Part shown: in pieces, positions 1 to 44,621 of the stretch
How positions within the stretch are numbered: the first letter of the stretch is position 1
How the letters are laid out: every line of letters begins with the position of its first letter
From: an uncultured Nitrospiraceae bacterium
GTDB lineage: Bacteria; Nitrospirota; Thermodesulfovibrionia; Thermodesulfovibrionales; Dissulfurispiraceae
Length of the DNA: 64,000 nucleotides
Direction: 5' to 3'
Assembly (NCBI GenBank): GCA_963736105.1
Contig: CAVTNL010000001.1
Span: forward strand, 862,688 to 926,687
Translations under genes and position numbers: made by a program
Notes under the pieces: generated by a model
Databases searched by the model: none
The model's input: the letters and a program-made list of their open reading frames with translations, nothing else
Told to the model about the DNA's origin: nothing

Positions 1-1336
1 AAAAGCTCAAGACCTCGTCCGCATGGCGGTAGCTAAGGCCGTCCTGCTTGAGCCTTTGAGTCAAACCGTGCTCGGAAACACCAAACGGGCTCTGGTGGTA
101 GGCGGAGGCGTTGCCGGCATGAACGCCGCCAAGGAGCTGGCGAGACAGGGTTATGAAACCGAGCTTGTAGAGCGATCAGAGCGTCTTGGCGGGCACGCCT
201 TACAGTTGTACAAGACGACCAGGGGAGAGGAGGTGGCGCCTTACGTCGATGAACTTGCAAAGAGCGTATCCTCTGACTCGCGCATCAATGTGCATCTGGG
301 CTCCGTAATATCAAAGGTCGACGGATTTGTCGGCAATTTCAAGACTACATTGAGCAAAGCCGGAAACGGCGAACAATCGGTTGTAGTCGAGCACGGGGTT
401 GCAATTATTGCAACCGGTGCTTCGGAGCTCAAACCTTCCGAATACCTTTATGGGCAGAATCCTAAAGTGATGACTCAGACGGAGTTCGATAGGCTGTTTA
501 AAGATAATTCCAAGGCATTCAAAGATATGAAAAAGGTTGTATTCATCCAGTGCGTAGGGTCCAGGGATAAGGACAGGCCCTATTGCAGCAAGGTCTGCTG
601 CGCACACTCTGTGCAAAGCGCAATCGAGATCAAGAAAAGAAACCCCGCGGCCGGCGTCTGCATCCTGAACAGGGACATCAGGACCTATGGCGAGCTCGAA
701 GACCTTTACCAGGAAGCAAGGGATGTGGGTGTGTTCTTTGCCAAATATGATGAAAACAGGAAACCTCGGGTCGAGGACAACGGCAGCACGATCGGCGTCA
801 CCTTCACTGATCACATACTGCAAAGGGACATCAAGGTTAATGCTGATTATCTGGTCCTGGCATCAGCGATAGTTTCCAACCGTGAAGAGGAACTTGCACA
901 ACAGTTCAAGGTACCGATGGATGCCGATGGCTGGTTCGTGGAAGCACACCAGAAGTTGAGGCCCGTAGACTTTGCAACTGACGGTGTCTTCTTGTGCGGG
1001 CTGGCCCACTATCCAAAGGCTATGGATGAGGCCGTTGCTCAGGCCCAGGCGGCTGTAGCTAGGGCTGTTACAGTTCTTTCGATGGACAGCATCGTGGTCG
1101 GAGGGAGCACCTCTAATATAGAAAAGAGGCGTTGCGCAGGTTGCGGCGTATGCATTAACCTCTGCCCGTTCCAGGCGATAAAATTCGATGATAAAGGGAA
1201 GGCTGAGGTAAATGTCGCGCTGTGCAAGGGATGCGGAGTTTGTGTCACCTCATGCAGGTCGGGAGCCCCTGATCTGAAAGGATTTACAACTGTAGGTGTC
1301 ATAGCTCAGCTCGACGCTCTGGAAGGAGTGGTGTAA
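1..1336 (+). CDS. hdrA: Heterodisulfide reductase subunit A-like flavoprotein (FAD/NAD-binding, two C-terminal 4Fe-4S ferredoxin motifs). 5' partial: the ORF runs off the window start.
   Basis: GGGVAGMNAA dinucleotide-binding motif. C-terminal CAGCGVCINLCP and CKGCGVCVTSC ferredoxin motifs. No stop in frame upstream of 23 back to position 2. Followed by mvhD. Confidence 0.7.
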   Translation, partial: KAQDLVRMAVAKAVLLEPLSQTVLGNTKRALVVGGGVAGMNAAKELARQGYETELVERSERLGGHALQLYKTTRGEEVAPYVDELAKSVSSDSRINVHLGSVISKVDGFVGNFKTTLSKAGNGEQSVVVEHGVAIIATGASELKPSEYLYGQNPKVMTQTEFDRLFKDNSKAFKDMKKVVFIQCVGSRDKDRPYCSKVCCAHSVQSAIEIKKRNPAAGVCILNRDIRTYGELEDLYQEARDVGVFFAKYDENRKPRVEDNGSTIGVTFTDHILQRDIKVNADYLVLASAIVSNREEELAQQFKVPMDADGWFVEAHQKLRPVDFATDGVFLCGLAHYPKAMDEAVAQAQAAVARAVTVLSMDSIVVGGSTSNIEKRRCAGCGVCINLCPFQAIKFDDKGKAEVNVALCKGCGVCVTSCRSGAPDLKGFTTVGVIAQLDALEGVV

Positions 1337-1398
1337 CAACCGTAACACAACAGGGCCCTTATGATGCCCGTTGCATTAACTAAATGGAAGGGTATTTC

Positions 1399-1848
1399 AT
1401 GTCAAAGTTCGAACCAACTATCGTGGCTTTTCTGTGCAATTGGTGCAGTTACGGAGCGGCTGACTTAGCAGGGGTAAGCAGGATGAAATATCCTGTAAAC
1501 ATAAGGGTCGTAAGAATTCCCTGCACAGGACGTATGAGCCTTGAATTTATCATGGACGCATTCCGCAGAGGAGTTGACGGCGTCTGGGTATCTGGCTGAC
1601 ATCCGGGCGACTGCCACTATATCAGTGGCAACCTGATCGCCCGTCGCAAGTTTGCGATTATGAAGAACCTTCTTGAATATGTTGGTCTGGAGCCAGGCAG
1701 GCTTCATTTCTCCTGGATTTCCTCCGCTGAAGGCGAGAAATTCGCTAATTTTGCAACATCGGTCGTAGAGAGTGTAACTGCATTAGGGCCGATAAAAAGG
1801 TTTGTAAAAGATACAGTTGAGGTCGGCGGCAGAGGTGCAGAATTATGA
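1399..1848 (+). CDS. mvhD: MvhD/FlxD-family protein (methyl-viologen-reducing hydrogenase delta subunit-like). Predicted selenoprotein: the in-frame TGA at 1597-1599 is read as Sec.
   Basis: ORFs 1384..1599 and 1660..1848 share a frame. Read-through gives ...GVDGVWVSG-U-HPGDCHYISGN..., matching the conserved GCHPGDCHY motif of MvhD with the TGA at the Cys position. A hairpin lies directly downstream. RBS GGAAGGG precedes the ATG at 1399. Confidence 0.75.
1604..1643 (+). promoter_or_regulatory. Bacterial-type SECIS-like stem-loop immediately 3' of the UGA in mvhD
   Basis: CGGGCGA(1604-1610) pairs with UCGCCCG(1637-1643). Inner stem GCCACU/AGUGGC with AUAUC loop (1613-1629). Begins 5 nt after the UGA. 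Confidence 0.5.
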
Positions 1849-2801
1849 ATACCAGAACAAATAAGATCAGGGAAATAGCCAAGAAGCTTCTGGACAAGAA
1901 CAAAGTCGATGTTGTGATAGGCTTCAAAAAGGGGACTATTCCGCTGCGAAACATTCCATATTTTGCGACCAATTCGAAAGAGGCAGACCAGCTTGTTTGG
2001 GATGGCAATTGCGTTGGCAACCTGGCGATCTATCTGCCCAGAACGGCAGCTAAACGCACTGCCATCATTGCACAAGGATGTGTAAGCAGAAACGTAGTAG
2101 GCCTAATTCAAGAGAAACAGGTAAACGGCGAAAATATTTATATCATCGGGATGCCATGCTCAGGGATGCTTGACGCTCGAAAGATCATGGCAGCCGTCCC
2201 CGGAGAGATTACAGAAGCGATAGAAGATGACTTGTATGTTACTGCTAGAGGAAAGGGATTCGAGCTTACAATGAATCGCAGTGACGTGCTGAACCGGAAT
2301 TGCGACCGATGCAGTGTCAGAAACCCGGTGCTTTTTGATGAACTCGCCGTAGAAAAGGTTAACGAACTAAAAGATCCTGTTCGATATGAGAAAATAAGGG
2401 CGGTAGAGGCGATGTCAACTGAAGAAAGGGCGAAGTTTATTGATGAACTCCTAAGCCCGTGCATACGCTGTTACGCCTGTCGCGATGCCTGTCCGTTGTG
2501 CTACTGTCCGGAGTGTTTTGTTGACAAGGCGAACCCCCAGTGGTGCGGAAAATCTCAAGACAGCATGGACGTTTTGTCATATCACCTGATCAGGGCGTTT
2601 CATACTGCGGGGCGATGCACTGAATGCGGGGCATGCGAGGAAGTTTGCCCCATGGGTATTAAGGTTAGGCTGATCTCAGGCAAGGTGGAAAAAGATGTCA
2701 GGGAAACCTTTGACGATTATGCGGCATGGAAGGATCTGAAAGCTCTGCCGCCGCTGACAGTCTTTCAGCGCGACGACCCTCAACCGTTCGTGAAGGAGTA
2801 G
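1845..2801 (+). CDS. Fe-S cluster protein with CxxCxxCxxxCP motifs (FlxC/FrhB-like electron-transfer subunit)
   Basis: CIRCYACRDACPLCYCPEC and CTECGACEEVCPMG motifs. ATGA overlap with the mvhD stop suggests translational coupling. Confidence 0.5.
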   Translation: MNTRTNKIREIAKKLLDKNKVDVVIGFKKGTIPLRNIPYFATNSKEADQLVWDGNCVGNLAIYLPRTAAKRTAIIAQGCVSRNVVGLIQEKQVNGENIYIIGMPCSGMLDARKIMAAVPGEITEAIEDDLYVTARGKGFELTMNRSDVLNRNCDRCSVRNPVLFDELAVEKVNELKDPVRYEKIRAVEAMSTEERAKFIDELLSPCIRCYACRDACPLCYCPECFVDKANPQWCGKSQDSMDVLSYHLIRAFHTAGRCTECGACEEVCPMGIKVRLISGKVEKDVRETFDDYAAWKDLKALPPLTVFQRDDPQPFVKE

Positions 2802-2811
2802 GTGACTGACC

Positions 2812-3843
2812 ATGGAATACATGAGACTGAATAAGAATAGAATGGCACTTTTTATTGAGGAGTTAAAAAAGAAATGCGAGGTCTGGGCGCCAGTTAAAGC
2901 GGGCGAGCAGGTAAAGTTCGCGCCTATTTCGAATGCATCGGATATAAACCTGGAAGGTTTTAGGAACACGACCATGTCGCCAAAGGATATCTTCTTTCCG
3001 CAATCGGAGATAATGCTTTCATTTAAGCGGGAGGGAGAGGAGGCAAATATTTACAGGGACGAACAATCCGTTCCCTCAAAGAAGGTCATATTCGGCATAA
3101 GGCCCTGTGATGCAAGAGCTTTCAGCCTCCTGGATATGATATTCAAGAACGATCAGTTTACCGACAACTACTGGTCGTCAAAGAGGGATGCGGCTACTAT
3201 CGTAGGGCTTGGCTGCAAAGAACCGTGCAGCACCTGTTTTTGCACATCGGTCAATTCGCATCCATTTGACGAGACTGGGCTGGACGTCATGGTTTCCGAT
3301 CTCGGCGAACACTACCTCTTTAAGTCCCTGACCAAGAAAGGCAGGGAACTGCTTGCAGGCAGCCATGCCTTGAGAGAACCCAGTGAAGCCAACATGGAGG
3401 CCTATAACACCATCAGAAAGAATGCTGAAAACGCCATGACTGTACAGTTCGGCACTGATAAGGTGAATGGCAAGACCGTGCTTGCACTCTTTAATGAAGA
3501 GTACTGGCAAAAAATATCCGAACCTTGCCTTAACTGCTCAACCTGTTCCTATGTCTGTCCAACCTGCCATTGTTTCGATATACAGGACGAGGTGTTCAGG
3601 GGAGGAGGGCAGAGGATGCGCAACTGGGAGTCGTGCATGACGTGGATATTCACCGTTCATGCAACAGGGCATAATCCACGGCCGACCAAGAAGGAGCGTG
3701 TGAGACAGCGGTTTATGCACAAGTTCAAGTACATACCGATGAAGAGGAACGGGGAGATTGGATGTGTAGGTTGCGGCCGCTGTGTAACAATGTGCCCTGT
3801 GAATATAGACATACGTGAAGTAGTAAAACAGATTAATTCGTGA
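2812..3843 (+). CDS. AsrA/HydB-like 4Fe-4S dicluster protein (anaerobic sulfite reductase A / sulfhydrogenase beta-like; FlxB-like)
   Basis: CLNCSTCSYVCPTCHC and CVGCGRCVTMCP motifs, about 340 aa, immediately upstream of a PyrK/AsrB-like flavoprotein. Confidence 0.55.
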   Translation: MEYMRLNKNRMALFIEELKKKCEVWAPVKAGEQVKFAPISNASDINLEGFRNTTMSPKDIFFPQSEIMLSFKREGEEANIYRDEQSVPSKKVIFGIRPCDARAFSLLDMIFKNDQFTDNYWSSKRDAATIVGLGCKEPCSTCFCTSVNSHPFDETGLDVMVSDLGEHYLFKSLTKKGRELLAGSHALREPSEANMEAYNTIRKNAENAMTVQFGTDKVNGKTVLALFNEEYWQKISEPCLNCSTCSYVCPTCHCFDIQDEVFRGGGQRMRNWESCMTWIFTVHATGHNPRPTKKERVRQRFMHKFKYIPMKRNGEIGCVGCGRCVTMCPVNIDIREVVKQINS

Positions 3844-3871
3844 GACTAAATACGACAAGAGAGAGCGATAT

Positions 3872-4711
3872 ATGAAAAACCCATATTTGCCTTATCCGGT
3901 AAGAATAGAAAAAACGGTAATCGAAACTGAAGATAGGAATATCAAGTCGTTCAAGCTTGTATTTCTCAAAGAAGAGGACCGCAATGCTTTTGTTTATACT
4001 CCTGGCCAGTTTGCGCAGCTATCGGTTACTGGCAAGGGTGAGATCCCCATCGGGATAGCTTCGTCTCCAACCGAAGGTGACCACCTGCTTTTTACCGTAA
4101 ATAAGATGGGAGTGGTTACGACCGCCCTCCACAATCTTTCCGAAGGATCAATAATGGGTGTGAGAGGTCCGCTTGGAAACTCCTATCCTTTCGAAAAGAT
4201 GAAGGGAAAGGATGTTACCATTATAGGTGGTGGTTATGCCTTTACAACGCTACGCGCTACAATTGTGTACATGCTTGATGAGAAAAACAGAGCTGATTTC
4301 GGTAAGATCACTCTTATTTATGGGGCAAGGACACCGGGGATGTTGCTTTACAAAGACACTTTGGAGGAATGGTCCAAGCGAGACGATATAAATTATAACG
4401 TAACCGTAGACAGGGACGCGCCAGGCTGGAGCGGAAGGGTCGGCTTTGTACCTGCAGTAACCGAGCAGGTTGCACCCTCCTCAAACAATGCAATCGCTGT
4501 GATCTGCGGGCCGCCAATTATGATTAAATTTACGCTGCCTGTTATGGAAAAACTCGGCTTTACGCCGGAGCAGACTATCACCTCCCTTGAAAATAGGATG
4601 AAATGCGGCATAGGCATATGCGGCCGGTGCAACGTAGGTCCGGAGTATGTTTGCAAAGACGGCCCAGTATTCTCGATGGCCCAGTTGCGGGAGATGCCTC
4701 AAGAATACTGA
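3872..4711 (+). CDS. FAD/NAD(P)-binding oxidoreductase with C-terminal 2Fe-2S site (AsrB / HydG / PyrK family; FlxA-like)
   Basis: Ferredoxin-NADP reductase-like fold signatures (YTPGQFAQL, GGGYAF). C-terminal CGIGICGRCNV...C cluster motif typical of PyrK/AsrB. Confidence 0.65.
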   Translation: MKNPYLPYPVRIEKTVIETEDRNIKSFKLVFLKEEDRNAFVYTPGQFAQLSVTGKGEIPIGIASSPTEGDHLLFTVNKMGVVTTALHNLSEGSIMGVRGPLGNSYPFEKMKGKDVTIIGGGYAFTTLRATIVYMLDEKNRADFGKITLIYGARTPGMLLYKDTLEEWSKRDDINYNVTVDRDAPGWSGRVGFVPAVTEQVAPSSNNAIAVICGPPIMIKFTLPVMEKLGFTPEQTITSLENRMKCGIGICGRCNVGPEYVCKDGPVFSMAQLREMPQEY

Positions 4712-4872
4712 TCTGTGTAAGCAAGGCGCTCTGCAAGGATTGAATATAAATGTCCAGTATATCGATCCTGAAAAATATTTAATATGTGTAGTGTGTTGTA
4801 AGTGTGGAGCCGGAAATATGCGCAATCACAATGGATTTAGGAAACAATGGGTCAATGAATAATCATACTCTA

Positions 4873-6589: not shown

Positions 6590-7909
6590 TTAGGCGCGGA
6601 TACTCGGTAATGCATTGCCGAGAGGAGCGCCTGTCTTTGATTGATAGGAATAGCCGTCAGCCCTGTGAATCACAGAGCAGTGTTTATAGCTGATACCCTG
6701 AACAACACCAGCAGTACTCGACACATTGAAATAACCAGACGTTCTCACTGCTACCTTGCCGACATGTATGCCTGTCTTTTTGCCGGTCGGGACACTAGCC
6801 TTAACTAAATCCCCCGTTCTAAACCCCTCGACCACACGAGTCGACTTGGCTGAAGTCCGTGAGAACCCAAACTTGTCCATACGGCACATTTGCCGACAGC
6901 CATGACCACAAGCCTTCACCTGCAGCACAGCCATATTCGAATCGAGCTTTACATGCGCCCCGGACTCGCCAACGCAGGCCGCATCTATCCAGTGAGCCTT
7001 CGGATAACCCTGTTGATTACGGTTGAACTTAGTGCGCCCACCGGACCAGAATGTCACCGGCAATCCAAGAGACTTCAGAGTATTGCCAATCGCATATCGG
7101 GTAGCGTTAACCGCTGCCGCGTCTTTGAGCGGCATAAGAGCTTGTTTCTGCACCTCCGGATGCCCAAACTCCACAGCAGTAAGATTGTTCTTTCTCTGAT
7201 TGCAATCCTCACAGGACAGAGTGAGGTTTGAAACACGATCAGTACCTCCTCTGGACTTGGGAATTATGTGCTCGATTTGCAATGGAATATTGCCTGTACC
7301 GCAATACGCACACCTATGGCCCCATTTTTGGAGCAGGTACTGCTTGACCTCAAATCCAGCAAGTGTCCCCTGCTGGTATTCGACACCGGATATTTCAGGG
7401 TTGACCATCTTCTGCATATCGAACCTGACAGTCTCCACCGCAACAGACGTTAGCGGGGCAAGCCGTTGCAACCTCTGCGCCCAAGTCATCGTGTTGTAAA
7501 CGCGAGACATGAGAGAGGGCGGCAACCATCCCTCTGGCCTGGTCCGATTGTCAAAACGTGGAGCACGATATCTGGTCTTGCGGTTGCGCCTGCTTCTGCG
7601 AATAGAGCGCCTTGAATCAAGAGCTTTTTTGATAGCCTGCCCTCTGTGGTGAATCTCTGCGGCAAAGACTACCGTCTTCCCTCGCTTGGCGTACTCGGCA
7701 ATAAGTGCTACTCCGGTCAACTTGCTGCCTGGATCCGTTTTGAATTCAATCGGCTGAGTGTCTCCGTCTGCTCGATCTTTAAGAATGATCGTAAACGGAT
7801 ACCGGTTCAGCACCGCAGCTTTCTTCTCCGTTAATAACATCCTGGCCCTTGCCGGAGTGCAGGGCATGAGATGCTGTCTGGTACTGCTTACTACGAAAAC
7901 ACGTTGCAT
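6590..7909 (-). CDS. iscB: IscB (OMEGA RNA-guided nuclease; IS200/IS605-family insertion-sequence protein with split RuvC and HNH domains)
   Basis: N-terminal PLMP-like motif (HLMPCTP). Arg-rich bridge helix (RRSIRRSRRNRKTRYRAPRFDNRTRP). HNH motif (CAYCG...IEHIIPKSRGGTDRVSNLTLSCEDCNQRKNN). Zn-finger cysteines (CGHGCRQMC). About 440 aa. Confidence 0.8.
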   Translation of the reverse strand: MQRVFVVSSTRQHLMPCTPARARMLLTEKKAAVLNRYPFTIILKDRADGDTQPIEFKTDPGSKLTGVALIAEYAKRGKTVVFAAEIHHRGQAIKKALDSRRSIRRSRRNRKTRYRAPRFDNRTRPEGWLPPSLMSRVYNTMTWAQRLQRLAPLTSVAVETVRFDMQKMVNPEISGVEYQQGTLAGFEVKQYLLQKWGHRCAYCGTGNIPLQIEHIIPKSRGGTDRVSNLTLSCEDCNQRKNNLTAVEFGHPEVQKQALMPLKDAAAVNATRYAIGNTLKSLGLPVTFWSGGRTKFNRNQQGYPKAHWIDAACVGESGAHVKLDSNMAVLQVKACGHGCRQMCRMDKFGFSRTSAKSTRVVEGFRTGDLVKASVPTGKKTGIHVGKVAVRTSGYFNVSSTAGVVQGISYKHCSVIHRADGYSYQSKTGAPLGNALPSIRA

Positions 7910-8144
7910 CGAATTACTCCTTCAATCTCCACTTTCGTGGGTAATGTGTGCCTCGGCAATGTTATCCGGCGGTTTCGCTTAAAGCGCCTGCTGTTGGGTG
8001 TGCAGACAGCACTGGCTTAACCCTTACACCTGTTTAACTGTCTGCCGCAGAGCTTGGGACTGGCAAGCATCCCGAGGTGCCTATGTATTCGCCGGTAACG
8101 TAGTTAATACAACACTGAGCCTGGTCAACTAGAGCATGCTTGAA
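7910..8144 (-). ncRNA. Candidate omega-RNA region upstream of iscB
   Basis: 235-nt non-coding gap 5' of iscB with multiple stable hairpins (CAGACAG...CTGTCTG at 8003-8044; GAGCATG...CATGCTC at 8131-8156). In IscB systems the omega-RNA is encoded directly upstream of the ORF. Confidence 0.4.
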
Positions 8145-8522
8145 TTAACACATGCTCTCGGTTTTAACCCCGAGTGGTTGACTGTAGCTTCCCGTGGCTA
8201 CATGACCGTTCCATGCTGTGATGCCTCCGTCCATACTGTAAATTTTAGAGAACCCCTGAGCTAATAAGAAAGCTGCTGCAGCCCGACTCCGGTTGCCACT
8301 CCTGCAGTATGTGAGAATTGGCCTAGTACGATCTAGCTCGCCCACTTTGTTTATGAGGTCTGGTAGCGGAATAAAAACAGCTCCTGGAAGATGGCCAGAT
8401 TTATACTCTTCAGGTTGTCGAACATCGAGAATAATAAATTCTGATCCCTTGTTGCCAAGCAATTCTTTTGCCTGGTCGACGTCCAGAGTTTCAATTTTAT
8501 TGCCTGCATTTATATCTTCCAT
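8145..8522 (-). CDS. Rhodanese-domain sulfurtransferase
   Basis: Single rhodanese domain with CRSGNRS active-site loop. Confidence 0.8.
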   Translation of the reverse strand: MEDINAGNKIETLDVDQAKELLGNKGSEFIILDVRQPEEYKSGHLPGAVFIPLPDLINKVGELDRTRPILTYCRSGNRSRAAAAFLLAQGFSKIYSMDGGITAWNGHVATGSYSQPLGVKTESMC

Positions 8523-10596: not shown

Positions 10597-12201
10597 ATGA
10601 TGAGAAAACTTACCATAAGCGCAGTCCTCGTCATTTTTCTCTTTAATAATATTGTCCTTGCCTCTGATTTTAGGTTCTCGCCGCATCCCAACACGGCTAA
10701 TCTCATAAAATGGAGGCACTGGGAGAAGCCGACCTTTGACGAAGCGGAGAAAGAAGGTAAACCCATACTGCTCTCCATAAGTGCAGTATGGTGTTACTGG
10801 TGCCACGTAATGGATGAAACAACTTATTCTGCTATTGATGTAATCGATTACATTAATAGTAATTTTATTCCGGTTAGGGTGGATGCAAACATGAGACCCG
10901 ATATAGACAATCTGTACAACCAGGGAGGCTGGCCCAGCACAGTTGTCCTTACGCCTAAGGGAGAAATAGTGCAGGGAGGAAACTACATTTCACAGGAGTC
11001 TATGATTGTTTGGCTTTCAGATGCACTAGAGATGCTCAAGGATGATAAAAATGGATTCAAAGAAAGAAGCAAAACAATAAATAAGAAGAGAAAAGAGACG
11101 GTTCGACAACAGGAAGGCACTACTCCAGATGTTTTTCAGATTACCAAGATAACCAATTTGCTTGAATCATCATACGACAAGAGGTATGGTGGCTTCGGGT
11201 TCTCGCAAAAGTTTCCTAATCCAGACGCAATAGATTTTCTACTCTCAGGGTATCTGAAAACAAGAACTTCCGAGCTGGCTACAATGATTTCCACGACTCT
11301 TGAGAAAATGTCTAGGGGGGAAATTTATGACCGTGTCGAAGGAGGCTTCTTCAGATATTCCACCGGGCGTGACTGGTCGGCCCCGCATTATGAGAAAATG
11401 CTGGATTTGAATGCGGCTCTCATCGGGAGTTATGCATCCGCCTATATGGTATATGCTAAGAGTGACGATAAGAAGGTCTTGAATAAAACGATCGCTTATA
11501 TAGAGAAGTATCTCTATGACAAAAGAACTGGAGCTTTTTACGGCAGTCAGGATGCTGAGGAGAAGTACTACGGGACAACTGAGAGATCCGGGCTTAAGCC
11601 ACCACACGTTGATAGCACTATTTACGCTGACTCAAATGCCCAGATGATAACGGGCCTTATTGACGCGTATGGAGCAACCGGTGAGAAAAGGTTTCTTAGA
11701 ATGGCGAAGCGGGCTGCTGAATTTATCATTATACATCTCTATACAGATAATGACGGTACGTATCATTATTACTCTGGGCAGAAGCATGTGAGTGGTCTGC
11801 TCTCAGATAACGTGCTCTTTGGGTTGGCACTTATTGATTTATACAATTCGACAGGTGAAAAAAGATACATAAGCATAGCTGAAGATATTTCTCGCCTTAT
11901 CATAGATAAATTTTATGATAAGACAAACGGCCATTTCATTCCGTTTCTTGAAACGACCATAGTCAACCCTGAGAAAGCAAGTGCGCTTGCAGACTACAAC
12001 ACCTACCTGGCAAATTACAGGGCAGTAATATTATTAAACAGACTTTATTATTTTAATGGGAAGGAAGGACTGAAAAACATCATTGAGAGTGCAATTGCCA
12101 AGCTGAGCACTGGCTATGTGTGGGCGGCGGGGAAAAAAAACCGATTCCGGTGGAACCGAAAGCGTCGCCTTGGGAGCCGGTCTTTAGCTGTTAGCTTGTA
12201 A
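10597..12201 (+). pseudogene. DUF255/YyaL-family thioredoxin-domain protein (thioredoxin-like N-term with CYWC plus six-hairpin glycosidase-like domain), N-terminal portion. The gene is interrupted by an IS21-family insertion.
   Basis: Signal peptide; SAVWCYWCH motif; COG1331-like body. The C-terminal remainder of the same family resumes at about 14950-15285, downstream of istAB. Confidence 0.65.
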
Positions 12202-12283: not shown

Positions 12284-12649
12284 TTGGCGAAGCGATGTAT
12301 CTATTGCGGGCGACATTTTACTCCTGATCGACGGCTGGGCGATCGGCAAAAAGCATGTAGCCGGGATCAGTGCAAGAAGAAACGCAAGCAAAGTGCCCAG
12401 CAGGCTTGGAACGTAAAGAATCCTGGATATTATAAAGGCCGCTACTGGTATGTGAAGGAATGGCGACAGCAGAAGCGCCAACAGAGTGCTGCCCTCCGGT
12501 CTCAGTCCATGATACAAGACGCGATACCCCCTTCAAAGTCATACCAGCAACTGGTTCTGCTGATACCGGACACGATAACAGGTGTGATACAAGACGAGAT
12601 ACGGCTGCGAAGGGTTGATAGTACTACGTTTACCGCCTATGGACCGTGA
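12284..12649 (+). CDS. Small basic Zn-ribbon protein (CxxC...CxxxxC), possible IS passenger or regulator
   Basis: 121-aa ORF inside the inserted element, upstream of istA. Lys/Arg/Gln-rich. The IstA-binding-like repeats lie in its 3' half. Confidence 0.3.
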   Translation: MAKRCIYCGRHFTPDRRLGDRQKACSRDQCKKKRKQSAQQAWNVKNPGYYKGRYWYVKEWRQQKRQQSAALRSQSMIQDAIPPSKSYQQLVLLIPDTITGVIQDEIRLRRVDSTTFTAYGP

Positions 12650-12725
12650 TACAAGACACGATGGACTACGGCAAAGTGCCGATGTAAACTTGGGAATCAC
12701 GACAAGCAAGGAGACAGCGGCCGAA

Positions 12726-14138
12726 ATGGAAGAATCACTTCAGAGCCGGGTACGGCATCTCTACCAAATTGAAGGATTGAGTCTGACCCAGGTAGGCAGG
12801 CAACTTGGCATATCCAGGAAGAAGGTTACCCGTCTCGTCCGACAGGATGATCTGCAAAGAAAGTCTTCAGAGACCGTAACTACTCCTTATGAACGACTGA
12901 TAGAGCAGTGGTACAAGGAATATCCGCTCCTCAAAGCCGTTCAGGTATTGGAACGACTGAAGAGCTATGGCTATGAGGGAGGGTATACAGCGGTAAAGGA
13001 ATGTACTCTTCAGTTCAGGAATAAGCGAAAGAACACCTCCTATCATGCTCTGGAGTTCCTTCCTGGAGAAGAAGCTCAGGTTGATTGGATGCAGCGGACC
13101 ATGCCTTTCGGCGTTGTTTACGGGTTTGTCTATATCCTGTCCTATTCGCGGTACCTCTACGCCCACTTCTATCTGAGGAGTTCCATGGAGTTCTTTCTGG
13201 ACGGCCACATAGAGGCTCTAAAGGAGATCGGAGGAATCGTCAGCAGACACACTTACGACAATCTCAAATCCGTAGTCATAAATAGAAAGCCCGTGATCAC
13301 ATACAATGCAAGGTTTGTGGACTTCGCCAGACATTATGGCTTTTCGATTCGTGCCTGCAATCCCGGCAAGCCCAATGAAAAAGGCAGAGTTGAGAGGGTT
13401 ATCAGGGACATCGAAAGCTTCCTCGTTGCCAACACCTTCAGTGATATCGGCGACCTCAACAGAAGACTCGGGCAGTGGCGGATACAGAGAAACAACAAGA
13501 TTCACCGGTCCCTGGGGATAACGCCCGCGGAGGCATTGAAACAGGAACGTCTCAGGAATCTTCCTCAGATCCATTACCTACCTTACCGGCAAGAGCCGGC
13601 GGCTATCAATAAGACATGCTTTGTGGAGTTCGACACCAACCGCTACTCGGTGCCGTCGCAGTACAGCAACAGGCCCTGTGACATCTTTGCTTATCCTCAT
13701 CAGATAGAAATCCTGGTTCAGGGCAAAAAGATAGCGACACACAACAGAGTATTCGACAGGAAACAAAAGATAGAACATCCTTCTCACCGCGAAAGGCTTC
13801 TCAATATCACTCCCCACTTCAAATACCAAAGGATGTACCAGCTCCTGAAGTCCATGGACAAAAACATCGAACACTTCCTCAGGCGGGCCGAACAGGAAGG
13901 ACAGGATCCTCTTGAGATCTCTTACGACCTGTTCAAACTGCTCAAAGGCATAGCCAGAGAGACGCTTATATCGGCGGTAAAGACCGCGATCAGCATCGAT
14001 ACATACAGAGTGACATATATCCAGGGGCTTCTAGGGCCTGCCGGTAATCATGACAATCCCGTGCATCCTCAGAACCATGGGCTGTTACACATCTCATATG
14101 AAGGGAGGCAGCTGAGCGACTATGATGAACTTATCTGA
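12726..14138 (+). CDS. istA: IS21-family transposase IstA (HTH plus DDE integrase core)
   Basis: N-terminal HTH (LSLTQVGRQLGISRKKVTRL). rve-like integrase core. Likely start at MEES (12726), not the upstream ATG at 12615. Confidence 0.85.
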   Translation: MEESLQSRVRHLYQIEGLSLTQVGRQLGISRKKVTRLVRQDDLQRKSSETVTTPYERLIEQWYKEYPLLKAVQVLERLKSYGYEGGYTAVKECTLQFRNKRKNTSYHALEFLPGEEAQVDWMQRTMPFGVVYGFVYILSYSRYLYAHFYLRSSMEFFLDGHIEALKEIGGIVSRHTYDNLKSVVINRKPVITYNARFVDFARHYGFSIRACNPGKPNEKGRVERVIRDIESFLVANTFSDIGDLNRRLGQWRIQRNNKIHRSLGITPAEALKQERLRNLPQIHYLPYRQEPAAINKTCFVEFDTNRYSVPSQYSNRPCDIFAYPHQIEILVQGKKIATHNRVFDRKQKIEHPSHRERLLNITPHFKYQRMYQLLKSMDKNIEHFLRRAEQEGQDPLEISYDLFKLLKGIARETLISAVKTAISIDTYRVTYIQGLLGPAGNHDNPVHPQNHGLLHISYEGRQLSDYDELI

Positions 14139-14799
14139 ACTGTGGAGACACTTCAGACTCCTTGCGGACCAGGAATCTCTGTCAAAAGAACAAAAGGAGT
14201 TCATGCTGAAGTTCCTCACCGAGGAGTATCAGCGCAAGGAACAAAAAAGAATCCAATATCTCATGAACATGTCCGGTATAAAAAGGACAAAGGTCCTCGA
14301 TGACTTCGACTGGAAATATAATCCTAAGATACCGAGGGACAAGATCCTGGAATACATGAACACGCAGTGGCTTAAGAAACCAAGCAACCTCATTCTCATA
14401 GGTCCTGCCGGCGTCGGCAAAACCCATGTTGCGACAGCACTATGTCACGATGCCCTGAGCAAAGGCCAGCAGACGGTCTTCCTGACACTCTTCGATCTCA
14501 CCGCCAAAATGGCGAAAGCCAAGAGCATATACAGCTTCATCGAATACCATTCAAGGGCAGCCGTTTGGTGTCTGGATGAGATTGGCTATGTGATCCCGAG
14601 CAAAGAACAGGCGGACTGCATCTTCCAGATAATCTCGAAAAGGGCAGAAGTGGGGACGACCATCGTCACCACTAATCTTGTGCCATCAAACTGGGGTAAG
14701 GTGTTCGACACCGTGACTGCGTCGGCGATTCTGGATCGGCTCAGCATGAGCGGAAGGTTCATCACCTTCGAAGGGAGGTCTTATAGGAGTAGACAATAG
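14122..14799 (+). CDS. istB: IS21-family helper ATPase IstB (AAA+, DnaC-like)
   Basis: Walker A GPAGVGKTH; overlaps the istA 3' end. Confidence 0.85.
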   Translation: MMNLSELWRHFRLLADQESLSKEQKEFMLKFLTEEYQRKEQKRIQYLMNMSGIKRTKVLDDFDWKYNPKIPRDKILEYMNTQWLKKPSNLILIGPAGVGKTHVATALCHDALSKGQQTVFLTLFDLTAKMAKAKSIYSFIEYHSRAAVWCLDEIGYVIPSKEQADCIFQIISKRAEVGTTIVTTNLVPSNWGKVFDTVTASAILDRLSMSGRFITFEGRSYRSRQ

Positions 14800-21853: not shown

Positions 21854-21976
21854 AGCATAGGCTTTAAGACATAAAGCGGGAATTCCCGGTAATTGATTGC
21901 CGGGAAGAAAGCGCCGCTGTTGGTTATTACAGTTCTTATTCTTGACAAACGTCCAGAATTGCTTTTAGATAGGAAG

Positions 21977-23533
21977 ATGCTCGAGTTATCTAACGATACA
22001 CCTACACATACGCGTGCTAAGGGCACCAAGAGGCCCAAACATACTGTAGTCACCCGTGCGTTTGATTTCCCCATGGAGGTAAGCGCAAAGCAGGCTGACC
22101 GGCTGTGGATGTGGGTCGGCGCTTGCTGGCGACTGCGCAATGACCTGGTTGCCGATCGCGCTGACAACCGTACAGCGAATAAGCTTCTTAAGCAGCAAGG
22201 TGTGACGGACATTCACTATCTCACTCAACCAGACCAGTATACGGCCATTCACGAATACGTCCTGCACGACACTGCACTCTCTAAAGTCCACAGCCAGGTC
22301 AGACAGAATGTGGCTGTTAGAGTTGCTGAAGGGTATAAACGGTTCTTCGAAGCTCTCAAAGAAGGGAAGACTGATGTCCACCCGCCCAAGTTCATCGAGC
22401 GAAAGAAGTACCGCAGCATCACCTTCCCGCAGTACGGTCCTGCTGCAAAAATCAAAAACGGCAAGATGCATCTTTCGGGCCTCGGAGAGTTTCGGCTGTT
22501 CGACTACCGCAAGGTCAAGGGGAAACCCAAGACCGTTACGATCAAGTTCAAGCAGGGCAGGTGGCACTGCGTAGTTACAGCCGAGGCCCAGGAGAAAGAT
22601 GTTCTGGATATGCTTATCTCTTCGGACTTTCGTCCTGACGCTGGGGCAGACACCGGACTGACTGCCTTGCTGACAGATTCCGAAGGCATCAAGTACGATC
22701 CGCCAAAAGCTTGGTACGATTACCGCAGAGGACTCCGGTCTGCACAAAAGAAACTGTCCAGGCAGTTTGAAACGAGAGAACTTGGATACAAGAATCAGGT
22801 TGAACTGGCGAAAGCTGCCGGTCGGCCAATCTCAGCACTCAAGGACATCCCCTATTCCAACCGGCTGAAGGCCCAGATCAAGGTTGTTGCCAAGATACAT
22901 ACCAAGATAGAGCGCATCAGGGACCATCACCACAAGAAGAATGCTTCAGTTATTTCGAATCGGTACCGCAAGGTAGCTGTAGAGGAGCATTCCGTGGGTT
23001 TTATGATCCGCAACCGGAAGCTTGCGAAAGTGGCTTCCGATCGGGCAATCCACAAGCAAAAGCTCCTGCTCAAGAGCAAGCTTGGTAACAAGCGGTACAT
23101 TGCGGAGCCAAACCAGACGGAGAACGGCGGCAACTCACAGACCTGCACCTGTGGTGCTCATGTCCCGAAGGAACTTTCAGACAGGGTCCACCACTGTCCG
23201 GCATGCGGGCTTACTGCCGGTCGTGACCATGTAGCGGCCAATATCGTAACAATCATAGCATTCGGATTTGCAAGTCTTACCCTGGGAGCGGGGTCACACT
23301 CTCCGGAGGCCGGGCAGGTCTTCGTCAGACGTGGAGAGGACAAGGCACTGCGTGGCGAATGCCATCTGTGCGAGTCGGAGGTCATCCCGGCTTCAGAGTC
23401 CTCCTGGAAGCGTCAACTTCTACAGGCGCGGGGACAAAGTACCACGGATGGGGAACCTACCGTGGAAGGCAAGACTTGTGAGCATCTTCAGGACACTCCG
23501 GAGTTGCCACATGAGCCGCAATCAGTCTGCTAG
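21977..23533 (+). CDS. tnpB: TnpB (IS200/IS605-family OrfB; RuvC-like nuclease with C-terminal Zn finger). The ORF is 3'-extended and probably reads through the omega-RNA/right-end region.
   Basis: N-terminal VVTRAFDFPMEVSAKQADRLWMWVGACWRLRND (OrfB N-term). Zn finger CTCGAHVPKELSDRVHHCPACG. RuvC-III RDHVAANI. No adjacent tnpA. Confidence 0.75.
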   Translation: MLELSNDTPTHTRAKGTKRPKHTVVTRAFDFPMEVSAKQADRLWMWVGACWRLRNDLVADRADNRTANKLLKQQGVTDIHYLTQPDQYTAIHEYVLHDTALSKVHSQVRQNVAVRVAEGYKRFFEALKEGKTDVHPPKFIERKKYRSITFPQYGPAAKIKNGKMHLSGLGEFRLFDYRKVKGKPKTVTIKFKQGRWHCVVTAEAQEKDVLDMLISSDFRPDAGADTGLTALLTDSEGIKYDPPKAWYDYRRGLRSAQKKLSRQFETRELGYKNQVELAKAAGRPISALKDIPYSNRLKAQIKVVAKIHTKIERIRDHHHKKNASVISNRYRKVAVEEHSVGFMIRNRKLAKVASDRAIHKQKLLLKSKLGNKRYIAEPNQTENGGNSQTCTCGAHVPKELSDRVHHCPACGLTAGRDHVAANIVTIIAFGFASLTLGAGSHSPEAGQVFVRRGEDKALRGECHLCESEVIPASESSWKRQLLQARGQSTTDGEPTVEGKTCEHLQDTPELPHEPQSVC

Positions 23534-25262: not shown

Positions 25263-28200
25263 ATGCTTCTTCGCGACAAAACACAGCGTCTATTTGAGTA
25301 TATCAGCCAAGTATATGCGATTGATCTGCCTATCAACCGGGATGTACGTAAATACGGGAATGAACTTTGGTGGCAATCTGATATCATCTCCTCAGCACAA
25401 TGTAAAATTAAGAATTTTATCGAAAGCACCAATGCAATAAGCGATGAGCAGAGTGATGAATTAGCCGATGAAAAATGGCTCTCTGTTACAAAACGTTCCT
25501 ATGATGAACCTCCTCAGTTACCTTCAATCATAAGAGAGTGGGTTGACCTTTCTCCCATTCCTTCAAAAATCCCGGCACCAAAGCCTTCAATCCCGAAGGT
25601 AATATCTTTTGATTCAGACTCCCGACGAACAGATGCTTTTAAAAGATATGCGGAATCTCTGAGAATCTGGAAAGCAGCGGGAAAGGGGAAGACAACCCCT
25701 CCGATACCGGAAAGCCTTCGTGGTTGGATTGATTTATCACAATTGGCTAAACCTCCTTTCAATTTAGCGTCTTTTGACAAACGTGAAATTATCCAGCAGT
25801 TCGAGGATGATAAGAACAGAGTCGAGGCACTGAAGAATTATATTGAAGGGCCTTGGATACTATGGTCCGAGAGGGTACTACCTCTTTTTAAAGCAAATAT
25901 GCTGTACGATCAACTTTTCTCGCTCTACCAGAGACTGAGCGTGGAGGGTGACCGTATCGAGATTGTTTGGGGACATCTTTTCCTGTCGTGGCATCACAGC
26001 GCTGACAACGATATATATCATCCTTTAGTAGTTACCCCGATGAACTTGCATTTTGAACCCATACACCGAACTATTAGCTTAGCTCCGAGTCAGACCATTT
26101 CAACAAAGTTGGATTTAGATTGCCTTACTAACCTTGACTACCCGTCTAAAGATAAACTCATAAAGTATGCAAGAATAGTAAATGCTGGTGAACCAGTGGT
26201 CGACAGCGGGGATATGTCACTCGATGCTTGGAACCATACTCAAATGCGATGGTGTTCCGCCACTATTACCGGATTTCTAAGCAATGAAAGTGCTGATAAA
26301 TCGAATTTATACGTGGCAAATGATATGCTGCGTCCACCGACGACGGACTATCCTGCAATTTACAACGCACCGGTGATTTTTATTCGTGAGCGTACTCGCC
26401 GATTGTGGGTAGACGATGCTAAGAAAGTGGCGGAGGCTGTCCAAAACGGTTCAGAGATTCCGCCCTTTATTGGTTCTCTTACGGCAGATCCGCAGACTAG
26501 CGAACTGCCAAATCCTGATGATTACAAAGACTACACAGGCAAAGACGAAGATGAAGGTGAACATTTATTACCGCTTCTTTACAACGACCAGCAAGAGGAA
26601 ATCGTTAAAAAATTAAAGGGACATTATGGGGTCCTTGTTCAAGGCCCGCCAGGGACAGGAAAGAGCCACACAATAGCAAACATCGTCAGTTCATTACTTG
26701 CACGCGGGAAACGAGTGCTAGTAACTAGTCAAACGGAGAATGCCCTAAAAGTATTGCGAGACTATATTCCCCCGGAGATTAGAAGCCTTTGTGTCAGCCA
26801 ATTGGGAAATGATACTGAGTCCAAAAGGCAGCTCGGGGAGGCGGTCGAGTCGATTGGCAATCACATGTCAGAAAAGGACAGTTCGGCAGTAGAACAGAAA
26901 ATACAACAATTAAAAGAAGAACTGAGAATGTTACGGGAAGAGCAGGCTCAACTTCGCAACAAGATAAAGGATTGGGTAAAAATAGATTCCTGGCATGTAC
27001 AAATAGGTGAGGAGATTGTCAGTGCGTATGCGGCTGCACGATACTGTGCGGAAAATGTGTCAGAGCACGCCTGGTTCCCCGATAGCCTTTCACCGGAAAC
27101 TGAGCCTCCATCAAATAACGAGGAATTGATAGAGATGTGTTCTCTGGTTAAGGAGCTATCACCAGCGGATAGAAAGGCCTGGGGACAGTACCTTCCTGAT
27201 CCAACCAATCTTCTGCAGCCTAAAGATTTTGCAGAAAAGATTTCTGAACTTAAGGCTCTTTTAGAGCTTTTAGTCGAATCAGAGAATTTAAGAGATCACT
27301 GGGATGAGAGAATAAATAAAACAGAACAGCAAGATGTTAAAAAGATAATCTCGATACTAGAAGCAGCCTTGTCCGAATTTGAAAAGATGAAAGATTCTTG
27401 GCAATTCAAGATCTTGGAACTGATAACTACAGAAAAGAACCAGCATGATTATTGGCAGAATGTATTACAGATGTGTGAGAATTATCGTAATTCTGCGTGG
27501 CAGTCTTACCAGCTGATTCAGGATTGCCAAATCGAAATTGGTGGACTATCGCCCGATTTAGAAGTGAATGCTGCGCTTGAGGAACTGGATAGACTCATCT
27601 CAAAGGGCAGAAAGCCAACTGGTCTGATAGCTAAGTTAACGCTTTCAAAGGCTGCCAAGGAAGTCTTTCGTAAAGTAAAGGTTGATGGACGTCAGCTACT
27701 CACTTCCGAAAGAGTAAAAGTCGCCAAAGCACATTGCTCGTATACGTCTCAAATCACGAAAATATACACTGTATGGGAGAAAACTATCGGTGCTGTTGAT
27801 GGATGTGTTTTAGACCGAGGGAACTTGATGCCTCTAGCCGAAATAGATGAAAAGATAAAGTGGTTACGTTACCCTCTTCAATGGAAGAACGGTCATTATA
27901 GGACTCTGGAGAGTGTCCTGACACATGCTGGATGTCAAGAACAGGCTTTCTATACGCATGAGGTTCTCGTCAGTGCTCTTAAAGTATTGAAGAGCCGGCA
28001 AGCTGAAATAGCACAGCAGGCTATCGAGGAGAAGCTGTCAGAATACGCAAGTTTTCTTGCAAATGAGTCCAAAAAAGAGAATGCCCACGTGCTATGGCAG
28101 ATGCTTTCCGAAGCTGTTAGGAGGCGCTCACTTGTTGAATACGTGCAAGCCTATGATGAGTCGGTGCGACTCCTACGTGTTGGCAAAAAGGTAAGGAGGC

Positions 28201-34793: not shown

Positions 34794-36273
34794 CCCAGAA
34801 TTGTCATTAGAGATGAGAAGTGAATGAAACGGGCAGATCAAAATCTTTTGATTTGCCCCAGAGCCCCTCAAACCATTGCCGTCGTCGCATCGCCAGGCAA
34901 AGCTTAAGAATACGTCTATTCCCATCTTTGACTAAGTAGCCGCCGGCAGCAAATATCTTGTATCGCATTGTCTTTAAAGTTGGTTGGACCTTACTGCACA
35001 AGACCACCTGGCGAAACAGACTCATCAGGTTATAGGCAAGCATTACGCAGTTCATTGCTGTTTCAGTGGCGCTGAAACTTTGCATATTGAAGCTGTCAGC
35101 ACCAAAGTCATACTTCAGTTCCTTGATCCGGGTTTCAGCATCCGCTGGCAGCCGGTAGATTTTCCATACAAGATGAGCGGGAAGCTCCAGGCTAGTAACA
35201 AAACAGCCATATCGATAGTCCCTGATCTCCACTTCCTCTGCAAACAATCTCAACACTTTGCCAGTTGCCTTCGGCCTTCTGGAAACCCGCTGTCGCACCA
35301 TGACCATTCTGCGCTCTTTACCCCAGCCATTGGCCCCGTAAAGAACTGAAGCCACTTCTATGCCCTCTTCAACCTCAAACCACTGCCGATGCGCCGCAAG
35401 CATGCGTTGCACAGGCGCATGTAGTCGTGTCGCAATAATATAGGGGATTGTATGCTGAGGTTCCTCAAGATACTCCAGTATAGTCTTCTGGTAAAAACCG
35501 CTATCTGCGCGCAACAGACCAACCTTCTTGCCGGCAAGGTGCTCAAGAGTGTCTTGCAGAAATCCCTCAAAGTTATTTGCCGTATGAGCATCGCCAGATC
35601 TCAGCCAGCAGTTGGCGACCATTCGGCAATCTGCAACAAATGCGAGCAGTGGATGATGGGAGTTTCTTCCAGGCTTCCGCGGATTGTACCCGCGACGAGC
35701 CCCTTCCTGTTGCCCGTACCGACTCATAACCGTTGAGTCCAAATCCAAGGTGAAGTTATCAAAATGCAGGTGCTCAAAAAACCACCGATAGAGCTCCTGA
35801 AACACTCTCTGGTTCGTTGCTTGCCCAAACTTCCTGAAATATCTTTGAACTGACTTATGCCCGGCCATACGTCTGTAATCAAATATCTTCCGTATCGCTT
35901 CATCATACCGAGTGACTTCCAAATGCTCAAATCGGTTGGCTCCGCACCACACGCTTACTAGAAACTGTTCTATCAGTTGTTCAGGTGCATACCCCCGATT
36001 GGAACCTTGCATCGGCAGTGCTGCCCGCTTTAATGCTCCCCGAAAGTCCATTTTCCCAAGCATCCGGTTCATTAGCGCCATGCCGCCCCATGGGGTTATT
36101 TCTTTGTCGCTAAAGCTCAGCTCAGGCTCTCGTGCCATGTATCGGTTCCTTACGCCATTTTCGCTTCCGATTGTGCCAAAGGCATTGAAATATCTTATCG
36201 CTTTTTCAGTAACTTATCCAGACCATTTCCTAATGGCGGCCATTAGAAATCCTTGGCTAATGACAATTCTGGG
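34794..36273 (-). mobile_element. IS1380-family insertion sequence, copy 1 (1480 bp)
   Basis: Perfect 17-bp terminal inverted repeats: CCCAGAATTGTCATTAG (34794-34810) and CTAATGACAATTCTGGG (36257-36273). Single 443-aa DDE transposase. Flanks are ATAAA (left) and TTAAT (right). Confidence 0.8.
34807..36138 (-). CDS. IS1380-family DDE transposase
   Basis: LDLDSTVMSRYGQQEGARRGYNPRKPGRNSHHPLLAFVADCRMVANCWLRSGDAHTANN matches the IS1380/ISEcp1 transposase core. Confidence 0.85.
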   Translation of the reverse strand: MAREPELSFSDKEITPWGGMALMNRMLGKMDFRGALKRAALPMQGSNRGYAPEQLIEQFLVSVWCGANRFEHLEVTRYDEAIRKIFDYRRMAGHKSVQRYFRKFGQATNQRVFQELYRWFFEHLHFDNFTLDLDSTVMSRYGQQEGARRGYNPRKPGRNSHHPLLAFVADCRMVANCWLRSGDAHTANNFEGFLQDTLEHLAGKKVGLLRADSGFYQKTILEYLEEPQHTIPYIIATRLHAPVQRMLAAHRQWFEVEEGIEVASVLYGANGWGKERRMVMVRQRVSRRPKATGKVLRLFAEEVEIRDYRYGCFVTSLELPAHLVWKIYRLPADAETRIKELKYDFGADSFNMQSFSATETAMNCVMLAYNLMSLFRQVVLCSKVQPTLKTMRYKIFAAGGYLVKDGNRRILKLCLAMRRRQWFEGLWGKSKDFDLPVSFTSHL

Positions 36274-39886: not shown

Positions 39887-40061
39887 CAAGCCGGTAGCTT
39901 AGGGTGTTGATAGATTGCTGCAACTCATTGTTAAATTGCGACAATGAAGGCATAATCAATCAGGATAAATCTTATGCAGATACCATAGCCCCAAAGCTTT
40001 GATATTGTAGCGTTAAAGGCATAGAAGGATAATTTTATCAACACCCTAAGCTACCGGCTTG
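39887..40061. mobile_element. MITE-like 175-bp element with 26-bp perfect TIRs and a 9-bp target-site duplication
   Basis: TIR CAAGCCGGTAGCTTAGGGTGTTGATA (39887-39912) against its reverse complement TATCAACACCCTAAGCTACCGGCTTG (40036-40061). Flanked by direct repeats TATTCCGTT (39878-39886 and 40062-40070). No ORF inside. Confidence 0.6.
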
Positions 40062-40325
40062 TATTCCGTTAGAGGTAGCCTACTTTCCTGAATAAAGTGC
40101 GGAAAGGAAAATGGTAATCTGGCCTGAAAGGCCTAATCAGCGCCGTGAGGCAATGAGATATCTGCCCCATGTATATTTGAGGGAAGAAATGTACCACATT
40201 CATATAATGAGAAATTTTGGTGTGACCGAAGATAGGGTTCATCTGTCTTTCGATAAATTATTGCAGCATTTATGAATAACTAGACATCGCTGCTGTGCCT
40301 CGGTTTATATGATAATATAAACCAT

Positions 40326-44620: not shown

Positions 44621-44621
44621 A

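Follow-up and report, generated by a model that had tools for sequence, protein, structure and literature searches.

In the 64,000-nucleotide (nt) stretch of an uncultured Nitrospiraceae bacterium analysed here (contig CAVTNL010000001.1, positions 862,688 to 926,687 of the forward strand, hereafter called the window), an in-frame UGA at positions 1597-1599 is very probably a selenocysteine (Sec, U) codon within a single 149-amino-acid (aa) [2Fe-2S] adaptor protein of the MvhD/FlxD type, encoded in an operon of the hdrA-flxDCBA type. We base this reading on homology that continues across the TGA, on the alignment of the putative Sec with cysteine in relatives, on conservation of the codon, on purifying selection acting on the frame and on hairpins downstream of the codon that are kept in UGA forms and lost in most Cys forms. 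A Sec-containing mvhD is in itself a further case of a well-documented family; the non-routine part is the putative recoding signal, which would consist of two adjacent conserved hairpins within the open reading frame (ORF), in the SelB-dependent style.

As an earlier note on this DNA had claimed, the ORFs 1384..1599 and 1660..1848 have one frame in common and are separated by a single stop, the TGA at 1597-1599. When this codon is translated, the joined frame counts 155 codons and reads ...GVWVSG-U-HPGDCHYISGNL... across the TGA. The extent of 1384-1848 that was assigned to the gene holds at its end, while the start is likely to be ATG 1399 instead of 1384, because GGAAGGG is present 6 nt upstream of this ATG and because the N-terminus that results, MSKFEP, lines up with the first residue of solved MvhD chains. 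Starting from ATG 1399, the product is 149 aa long with the TGA as codon 66, the predicted Sec-bearing peptide is VWVSG-U-HPGDCHYISGNLIAR, and the gene's own stop (TGA 1846-1848) overlaps ATG 1845 of the next gene.

For protein profile and structure searches, a Cys was put in place of the TGA-encoded residue. The joined protein matches Pfam family PF02662 (FlpD, methyl-viologen-reducing hydrogenase delta subunit) from end to end (1-123 of 123, E-value 3.8e-52) in a single stretch that runs uninterrupted across the UGA, and scores 132.5 bits with the NCBIfam VhuD model, which is under the cut-off of 215 of that model. Six solved chains of the MvhD/VhuD type were matched, with 5ODC_D as the top match (E 2e-45), and the TGA stands opposite Cys67 of this chain, the first Cys of GCHLGDCHY. 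The proposed alignment of the TGA to the first Cys of a GCHPGDCHY motif is thereby confirmed, and alignment of the joined translation to MvhD homologues gives an end-to-end match with no natural C-terminus at the TGA; the label 'catalytic Cys' that had been attached to this position is a misnomer, since MvhD acts as an adaptor in electron transfer. Cys or Sec occupies five positions of the protein and no others (C13, C16, C42, U66 and C71). Because one Cys near the MvhD cluster, which is Sec19 in BamF, is described as a non-ligand redox partner (bioRxiv 10.64898/2026.04.10.717634), residue 66 is probably, by elimination, a ligand of the [2Fe-2S] cluster. The Sec positions named in the literature examined, CxxU (table in PMC13188914) and Sec19 of BamF, are both N-terminal, and the one described here is residue 66.

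At the Sec position, the best 120 full-length database proteins carry C (115), W (two) or R (one), or do not match the motif pattern (two), and on this ground there are no intact Sec forms in the protein database searched. That these proteins are all Cys or mis-read forms agrees with the claim that the gene is mis-split by ORF callers. The homologues with W (P0020 and P0057) or R (P0066) stand apart in this set; the local peptide of P0020 is identical to that of TGA-containing loci, and the W of P0020 and P0057 probably results from calls made with a table in which TGA encodes Trp. The closest named relative is a Dissulfurispiraceae metagenome-assembled genome (MAG; L001), with 85% identity at the amino acid level.

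Conservation of the codon was assessed in two samples, one of 80 genome loci encoding relatives (84 MvhD copies) and one of 40 further TGA loci of the window's subtype, collected from metagenomes with a pattern scan. Of the 84 copies, 60 have TGA at this codon and the other 24 have TGC or TGT, and overall TGA is found at this codon in about 100 related loci (60 genome copies and 40 metagenome loci); double-Sec or N-terminal-Sec variants of mvhD were absent from the 120 loci. In comparisons with nine relatives, most codon differences on either side of the TGA are synonymous, the ratio of synonymous to nonsynonymous changes against L091 being 14:2 upstream and 16:3 downstream. Since synonymous changes dominate on both sides, the frame appears to be translated through the TGA, and the UGA is thus kept in orthologues together with a downstream frame under purifying selection. 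It is therefore highly improbable that the TGA is a true stop which leaves a pseudogene or two separate polypeptides (1399-1596 and 1660-1848). ORF callers do read the gene in this way and an ATG is present at 1660, but TGA occurs at precisely this codon across many lineages, in some 100 loci; the stretch from the TGA to ATG 1660 (20 codons) is under purifying selection and specifies HPGDCHY..GN, the best-conserved motif in this family; and two separate polypeptides would each receive only a part of the Cys motif at the cluster site. One TGA form, the minus-strand mvhD of L118 (TGA at 3757 in the orientation analysed; HYIEGNYYARRKF), has neither of the two hairpin types described below, and its best fold near the TGA reaches -8.8 kcal/mol; it represents either a third solution for the selenocysteine insertion sequence (SECIS) or a dead gene.

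A standard amino acid at this position, with UGA read as Trp, Cys or Gly via a variant code or SECIS-independent suppression, could be argued from the W of P0020 and P0057, but we give it an equally slight chance. TGA acts as an ordinary stop in the window, where it ends 11 of the 27 well-supported genes, including mvhD itself 83 codons further on, and a variant genetic code is rejected on this count; moreover, long conserved ORFs run without internal TGA, and synonymous constraint linked to structure is seen only in the UGA forms. None of the other in-frame TGA candidates in the window is selenoprotein-like.

In bacterial selenoproteins, SelB and its Sec-tRNA are tethered by an RNA structure located immediately 3' of the UGA, and a G-U in the loop of the canonical SECIS is the feature recognised by SelB. 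The earlier note had described a bacterial-type SECIS hairpin that starts 5 nt after the UGA. The 40-nt hairpin (hairpin 1, CGGGCGA...UCGCCCG) is real by its minimum free energy (MFE) and by shuffling, and its stem does begin at 1604; the unpaired nucleotides between the UGA and the stem number four (CAUC), and the loop is without the consensus G. Its MFE is -22.3 kcal/mol (z = -3.84), a stability reached by none of 200 dinucleotide shuffles and by 6 of the 5000 synonymous recodings that were made of this peptide, and because so few recodings fold as well, the hairpin goes beyond chance. It is conserved in the orthologous loci as well. Taking 36 distinct relatives of the window's subtype of Sec mvhD (class A), 92% of the pair cells are paired and the wobble positions in the stem are frozen (GGC in 35/36, GAC in 33/36, TGC in 35/36 and CAC in 36/36), whereas those in the loop and at unpaired sites vary freely; a G in the loop is found in none of the 36. 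RNAalifold, applied to a gapless alignment of 26 relatives, recovered just the core of hairpin 1, with no covariation. Codon entropy over the 15 codons after the UGA is 0.61 in class A, compared to 1.28 in the rest of the gene, and 0.69 compared to 1.43 in class B, the other Sec class (mostly Desulfobacterales), while it is barely lowered in the Cys forms (1.29 compared to 1.55). An alternative fold of the same region (AUCAG/CUGAU with loop UGGCAAC, 1621-1637), which places a UGG at 26 nt from the UGA, was rejected upon reading the 36 aligned sequences, without a separate pair count: it pairs only in the window's clade, and the frozen wobble positions TGC and CAC fall in the strand that it leaves unpaired.

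The claim of a single hairpin overlooked a second one, hairpin 2, which lies directly 3' of the first and carries a canonical G-U loop. The MFE fold of 1597-1665 (-27.6 kcal/mol, z -4.15) includes it, and all 25 distinct class-A sequences form it (-6.7 to -12.9 kcal/mol), with stems of three kinds: GUCGCA/UGCGAU, GACGGCG/CGCCGUU and GGCGGA(A)/(U)UCCGCC. Across these 25 sequences, five positions of the stem show compensatory pair changes, and every loop reads (A)GUU(C). Because hairpin 2 can be drawn in two registers (loop GUU or AGUU), it was analysed both sequence by sequence and in one fixed register; in the latter, its covariation score on a gapless alignment was above that of 500 out of 500 shuffles. 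The loop G, at offset 53, falls on the wobble position of an AAG or CGG codon and is present in 41/41 class-A sequences versus 16/50 of class B and 11/24 Cys forms, with any hairpin at this site being rare in class B and in the Cys forms. For the window peptide, the usage-weighted chance that synonymous recoding gives a hairpin with G followed by G or U at loop position 1-2 amounts to 0.0022.

We then compared both hairpins with the bacterial SECIS consensus, which comprises a loop of 3-9 nt on a stem of 4-16 base pairs (bp), a G in loop position 1-2 that is usually followed by G or U, a UGA-to-loop distance of 16-37 nt and an MFE of -7.5 or lower, and from which a subset of bacterial SECIS elements departs (PMC13188914). 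Loop and stem sizes agree with it for hairpin 1 (5 nt and 7 bp) and hairpin 2 (4 nt and 5-6 bp). The loop G is absent from hairpin 1 (AUAUC) and present in hairpin 2 (AGUU/GUU), and the distance to the UGA is within range for hairpin 1 (19 nt) and outside it for hairpin 2 (49 nt). The MFE is low enough for hairpin 1 and for both hairpins together, with the values given above, whereas hairpin 2 alone reaches -6.7 in the window; its values in other relatives are -9 to -13. The class-B hairpin is a different one (CAUUACC-UGGAA-GGUAAUG, offsets 19-35) and fits the consensus in full, as does the SECIS in the hdrA gene of the relatives.

Several observations weigh against the Sec reading of the UGA and its two-hairpin signal. 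Neither hairpin fits the SECIS consensus on all four counts, the first being without the loop G and the second lying at 49 nt with -6.7 kcal/mol on its own, and no Rfam SECIS family was matched, either in gathering mode over the whole window or in E-value mode over 1560-1700. Hairpin 1, conserved as it is, shows almost no compensatory change in the 36 class-A relatives. Furthermore, no selA, selB, selD or other Sel family was present among the 38 ORFs scanned in the 64-kb window, a result that is uninformative for the whole genome, and the window contains no tRNA-Sec, ARAGORN finding no tRNA in it at all.

The Cys forms served as a control, in three lineages in which the local peptide is nearly the same (L121; L122/L123, Desulfarculus sp.; and L124). 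In L122/L123 and L124, both hairpins are lost, the hairpin 2 region folding with -0.3 and 0.0. In L121, which has TGT for TGA, both hairpins are intact (region 461-529, -25.8 kcal/mol), which gives this locus the appearance of a recent replacement of Sec by Cys that left a fossil SECIS behind. The structure is thus kept in the UGA orthologues and decayed in most Cys forms. In two further Cys loci, those of the Desulfobulbaceae L057 and L071 (TGC), a degraded hairpin 1 is still present.

The gene upstream of mvhD provides a second Sec codon in relatives. The block 1-4725 of the window is syntenic in five metagenome contigs (L083, L091, L093, L107 and L110) with about 84% nucleotide identity, and the upstream gene of the relatives encodes a fused HdrA-like protein of about 1000 aa with an in-frame TGA of its own at FPTNDCAM-U-IISPKLVE, the known Sec site of HdrA. 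This TGA (positions 3082-3084 in L001, with an equivalent site in about 50 other loci) lies 3119-3120 nt upstream of the mvhD TGA, so that its counterpart here would precede base 1 of the window by about 1.5 kb. In the relatives, a canonical SECIS (CUGGUCG-AGGU/AGUU-CGGCCGG) follows it after 22 nt. Since hdrA also has an in-frame TGA and a canonical SECIS, the operon of the relatives encodes two selenoproteins. Among loci with enough upstream DNA, hdrA is in the Sec form in 50 of the 51 with mvhD-Sec and in the Cys form in 14 of the 17 with mvhD-Cys. From the Sec codon in hdrA of the relatives, as the strongest indirect indication, we infer that SelB and tRNA-Sec are probably present in the source genome and that the organism is probably selenium-using.

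Which of the two hairpins would bind SelB is a matter on which sequence and position point in different directions. The sequence favours hairpin 2, because its G-U loop resembles that of the hdrA element of the same contigs; the position favours the upper part of hairpin 1, because this sits where canonical elements sit. We give roughly even odds to the reading in which hairpin 2 is the SelB site and hairpin 1 brings it within reach of the ribosome. SelB with its Sec-tRNA would then be held by the RNA structure 3' of the UGA, hairpin 1 would fold out the approximately 30-40 nt that encode the invariant HPGDCHY..GN, the ribosome would melt the base of hairpin 1 and thereby come to have hairpin 2 a few nucleotides from the mRNA entrance, and Sec would be delivered once the UGA enters the A site. 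The product would take part in NAD(P)H-linked, HdrA-based electron bifurcation.

It is possible, though on balance unlikely, that hairpin 1 alone is the SelB-binding SECIS, as a non-canonical class without loop G, and that hairpin 2 has an accessory role or no connection with SelB. In hairpin 1, the upper stem-loop occupies offsets 15-33, comparable to 19-35 in class B and 18-35 in hdrA, three of the four consensus features are present (19 nt; loop of 5 nt and stem of 7 bp; -22.3), its stem wobble positions are frozen and some bacterial SECIS elements are known to depart from the consensus (PMC13188914). However, its loop has no G in any of the 36 distinct relatives and drifts freely at wobble sites, the AGGU/AGUU of the hdrA SECIS on the same contigs makes the usual G-U contact the probable one for the local SelB, and this reading would leave unexplained why hairpin 2 covaries and has an invariant loop G.

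The reading in which hairpin 2 binds SelB can be taken one step further, which we do tentatively and with somewhat less than even confidence. In such a bipartite signal, the G-U hairpin at 1644-1657 would work at 49 nt only because the 40-nt 'spacer' hairpin at 1604-1643 folds out the codons in between and, with the same reserve, the HPGDCHY..GN codons may be unable to encode a G-loop hairpin at the canonical distance. If true, this would be a new SECIS architecture shaped by the coding constraint on a metal-cluster motif. If the G-U hairpin at 49 nt is indeed the SelB site, the spacing rule of bacterial selenoprotein finders would be too narrow, and signals of this kind would be missed. In annotation, a single Sec-containing mvhD/flxD gene should replace the two ORFs, and the source genome should be flagged as Sec-decoding; the same correction applies to the approximately 100 related loci, the full-length products of which are absent from the protein database searched.

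The features of the locus are collected in Table 1. The context proposed earlier, with hdrA upstream and Flx-like genes downstream, is borne out by the Pfam and NCBIfam matches, and the gene order hdrA-flxD-flxC-flxB-flxA agrees with the published order hdrCBA-flxDCBA of the FlxABCD-HdrABC type.

Table 1 Positions of the mvhD/flxD gene, its candidate recoding elements and the neighbouring genes in the window
Feature	Positions	Strand	Description and evidence
HdrA-like flavoprotein gene, 3' part (444 codons)	2..1336	+	Cut by window start; NCBIfam HdrA2/HdrA E 2.7e-87; Pfam Pyr_redox_2, Fer4
Shine-Dalgarno-like GGAAGGG	1386..1392	+	6 nt before ATG 1399, read from sequence
mvhD/flxD coding sequence, 149 codons, probable Sec at codon 66	1399..1848	+	PF02662 1-123/123, E 3.8e-52; PDB MvhD E 2e-45
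In-frame UGA, very probably read as selenocysteine	1597..1599	+	Opposite Cys of GCHxGDCHY; conserved; purifying selection on both sides
Hairpin 1	1604..1643	+	Lower stem 1604-1611/1635-1643; upper stem 1612-1618/1624-1630; loop AUAUC 1619-1623
Hairpin 2	1644..1657	+	UCGCA-AGUU-UGCGA, 5-6 bp, extendable by G1643-U1658; directly 3' of hairpin 1
flxC-like Fe-S protein gene, 318 aa	1845..2801	+	Pfam Fer4 families
flxB-like (ShyB/HydB/AsrA-like) Fe-S protein gene, 343 aa	2812..3843	+	Pfam Fer4_22 E 5.7e-35; NCBIfam ShyB E 3.8e-54
flxA-like FAD/NAD(P)-binding subunit gene, 279 aa	3872..4711	+	Pfam NAD_binding_1, DHODB_Fe-S_bind; NCBIfam hydrogenase gamma/HydG/ShyC, AsrB-like

A number of other features were observed in the window. 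An IscB-type gene (RRXRR and HNH domains, 439 aa; 6590-7909, minus strand) lies directly downstream of a full-length HEARO RNA (7941-8182, minus strand; 128 bits compared to a gathering score of 83), and judged from their sequence the two (6590-8182) look like an intact OMEGA/IscB RNA-guided nuclease unit. A DUF255/thioredoxin-domain protein (10597-12201, plus strand) has a weak and partial match to the NCBIfam selenoprotein model TsoB (E 6e-10; 38 bits with a cut-off of 805), which most likely reflects a shared thioredoxin fold only, because the gene has no in-frame TGA. Mobile elements are dense (12615-14799, 21893-23533, 34807-36138 and 60049-61380) and include an IS21 element (istA and istB), a TnpB RNA-guided nuclease gene and two IS1380-family transposase genes, both of 443 aa and on the minus strand. 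A role in defence or repair is conceivable for the product of a 1560-aa plus-strand ORF (25263-29945), in which superfamily-1 helicase domains (AAA_11/AAA_12) are joined to a REase_MTES_1575 nuclease domain at the C-terminus. A borderline match to the group II intron model D1D4-7 (40057-40184, plus strand; 34.8 bits, gathering score 34) is located just upstream of a response-regulator/histidine-kinase pair (40326-42370) and also upstream of a TolC-MFP-RND metal-efflux operon (43295-49105). Further on, two group II intron 5' parts stand in series on the plus strand (D1D4-4 at 49499-49638 and D1D4-2 at 50859-50973), and a single domain V/VI match (52583-52658, plus strand) follows both. The reverse transcriptase (RT) ORF of the first intron (49758-50825) is truncated, covering 156 of the 205 positions of RVT_1, and the RT (51276-52112) and maturase (52126-52581) of the second are split over two ORFs; the region 49499-52658 thus has the appearance of one group II intron inserted in another, both damaged.

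Compared to known systems, the protein belongs with FrhD/MvhD/VhuD, which a 2006 survey already lists as a bacterial selenoprotein family, then with 19 members and third largest; its genes frequently neighbour Sec-HdrA, Sec and Cys have replaced each other either way, and remnant SECIS elements occur in Cys forms (PMC1794560). The family is included in the current selenoprotein catalogue (PMC13188914), mvhD of Desulfococcus multivorans is annotated as a split Sec gene (dmul_C28840/50; PMC5109826), and Syntrophobacter fumaroxidans counts eight FrhD among the bacterial FrhD/MvhD selenoproteins. These selenoproteins of sulfate reducers and syntrophs share with the present one the PF02662 domain, an in-frame UGA followed by a SECIS within the ORF (here a putative one) and, here as judged from relatives, a Sec-hdrA neighbour, but have the hydrogenase genes frhG/frhA as partners where flxCBA-like genes are found here, and derive from classical deltaproteobacteria, whereas the nearest named relative here is a Dissulfurispiraceae MAG. 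In the literature examined on FrhD/MvhD selenoproteins, no description was found of the two-hairpin signal of the window's subgroup. Archaeal VhuD (Methanococcus, Methanocaldococcus) is likewise a selenoprotein, encoded in a cluster with hdrA and acting as a [2Fe-2S] adaptor from an electron-input module to HdrA, but its SECIS is in the 3' untranslated region and is read by aSelB, in contrast to an element within the ORF, and the reference protein has two Sec with the motif given as CxxU (N-terminal), compared to one Sec at residue 66. BamF, of the class II benzoyl-CoA reductase of Geobacter metallireducens, is also a Sec-containing bacterial MvhD homologue and connects a bifurcating, HdrA-like subunit with an input module for NADH/ferredoxin (bioRxiv 10.64898/2026.04.10.717634); its Sec is residue 19, the non-ligand Cys near the cluster, whereas the one described here is residue 66 in GUHPGDCHY, and BamF is more than 100 aa longer. 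With FlxD of FlxABCD-HdrABC (hdrCBA-flxDCBA of Desulfovibrio vulgaris and Bilophila wadsworthia), the locus has in common the gene order and the domains of the three downstream genes; that system includes hdrB and hdrC, which would lie upstream here, as the window starts inside hdrA. Finally, the canonical SECIS (E. coli fdhF type; Zhang and Gladyshev consensus) is likewise a stem-loop within the ORF directly 3' of the UGA, and hairpin 2, the class-B hairpin and the hdrA element all resemble it in having G and then G or U at loop position 1-2. The canonical G-U loop, however, is found at 16-37 nt from the UGA, whereas the G-U loop of the window is at 49 nt, with a G-less 40-nt hairpin at the canonical place.

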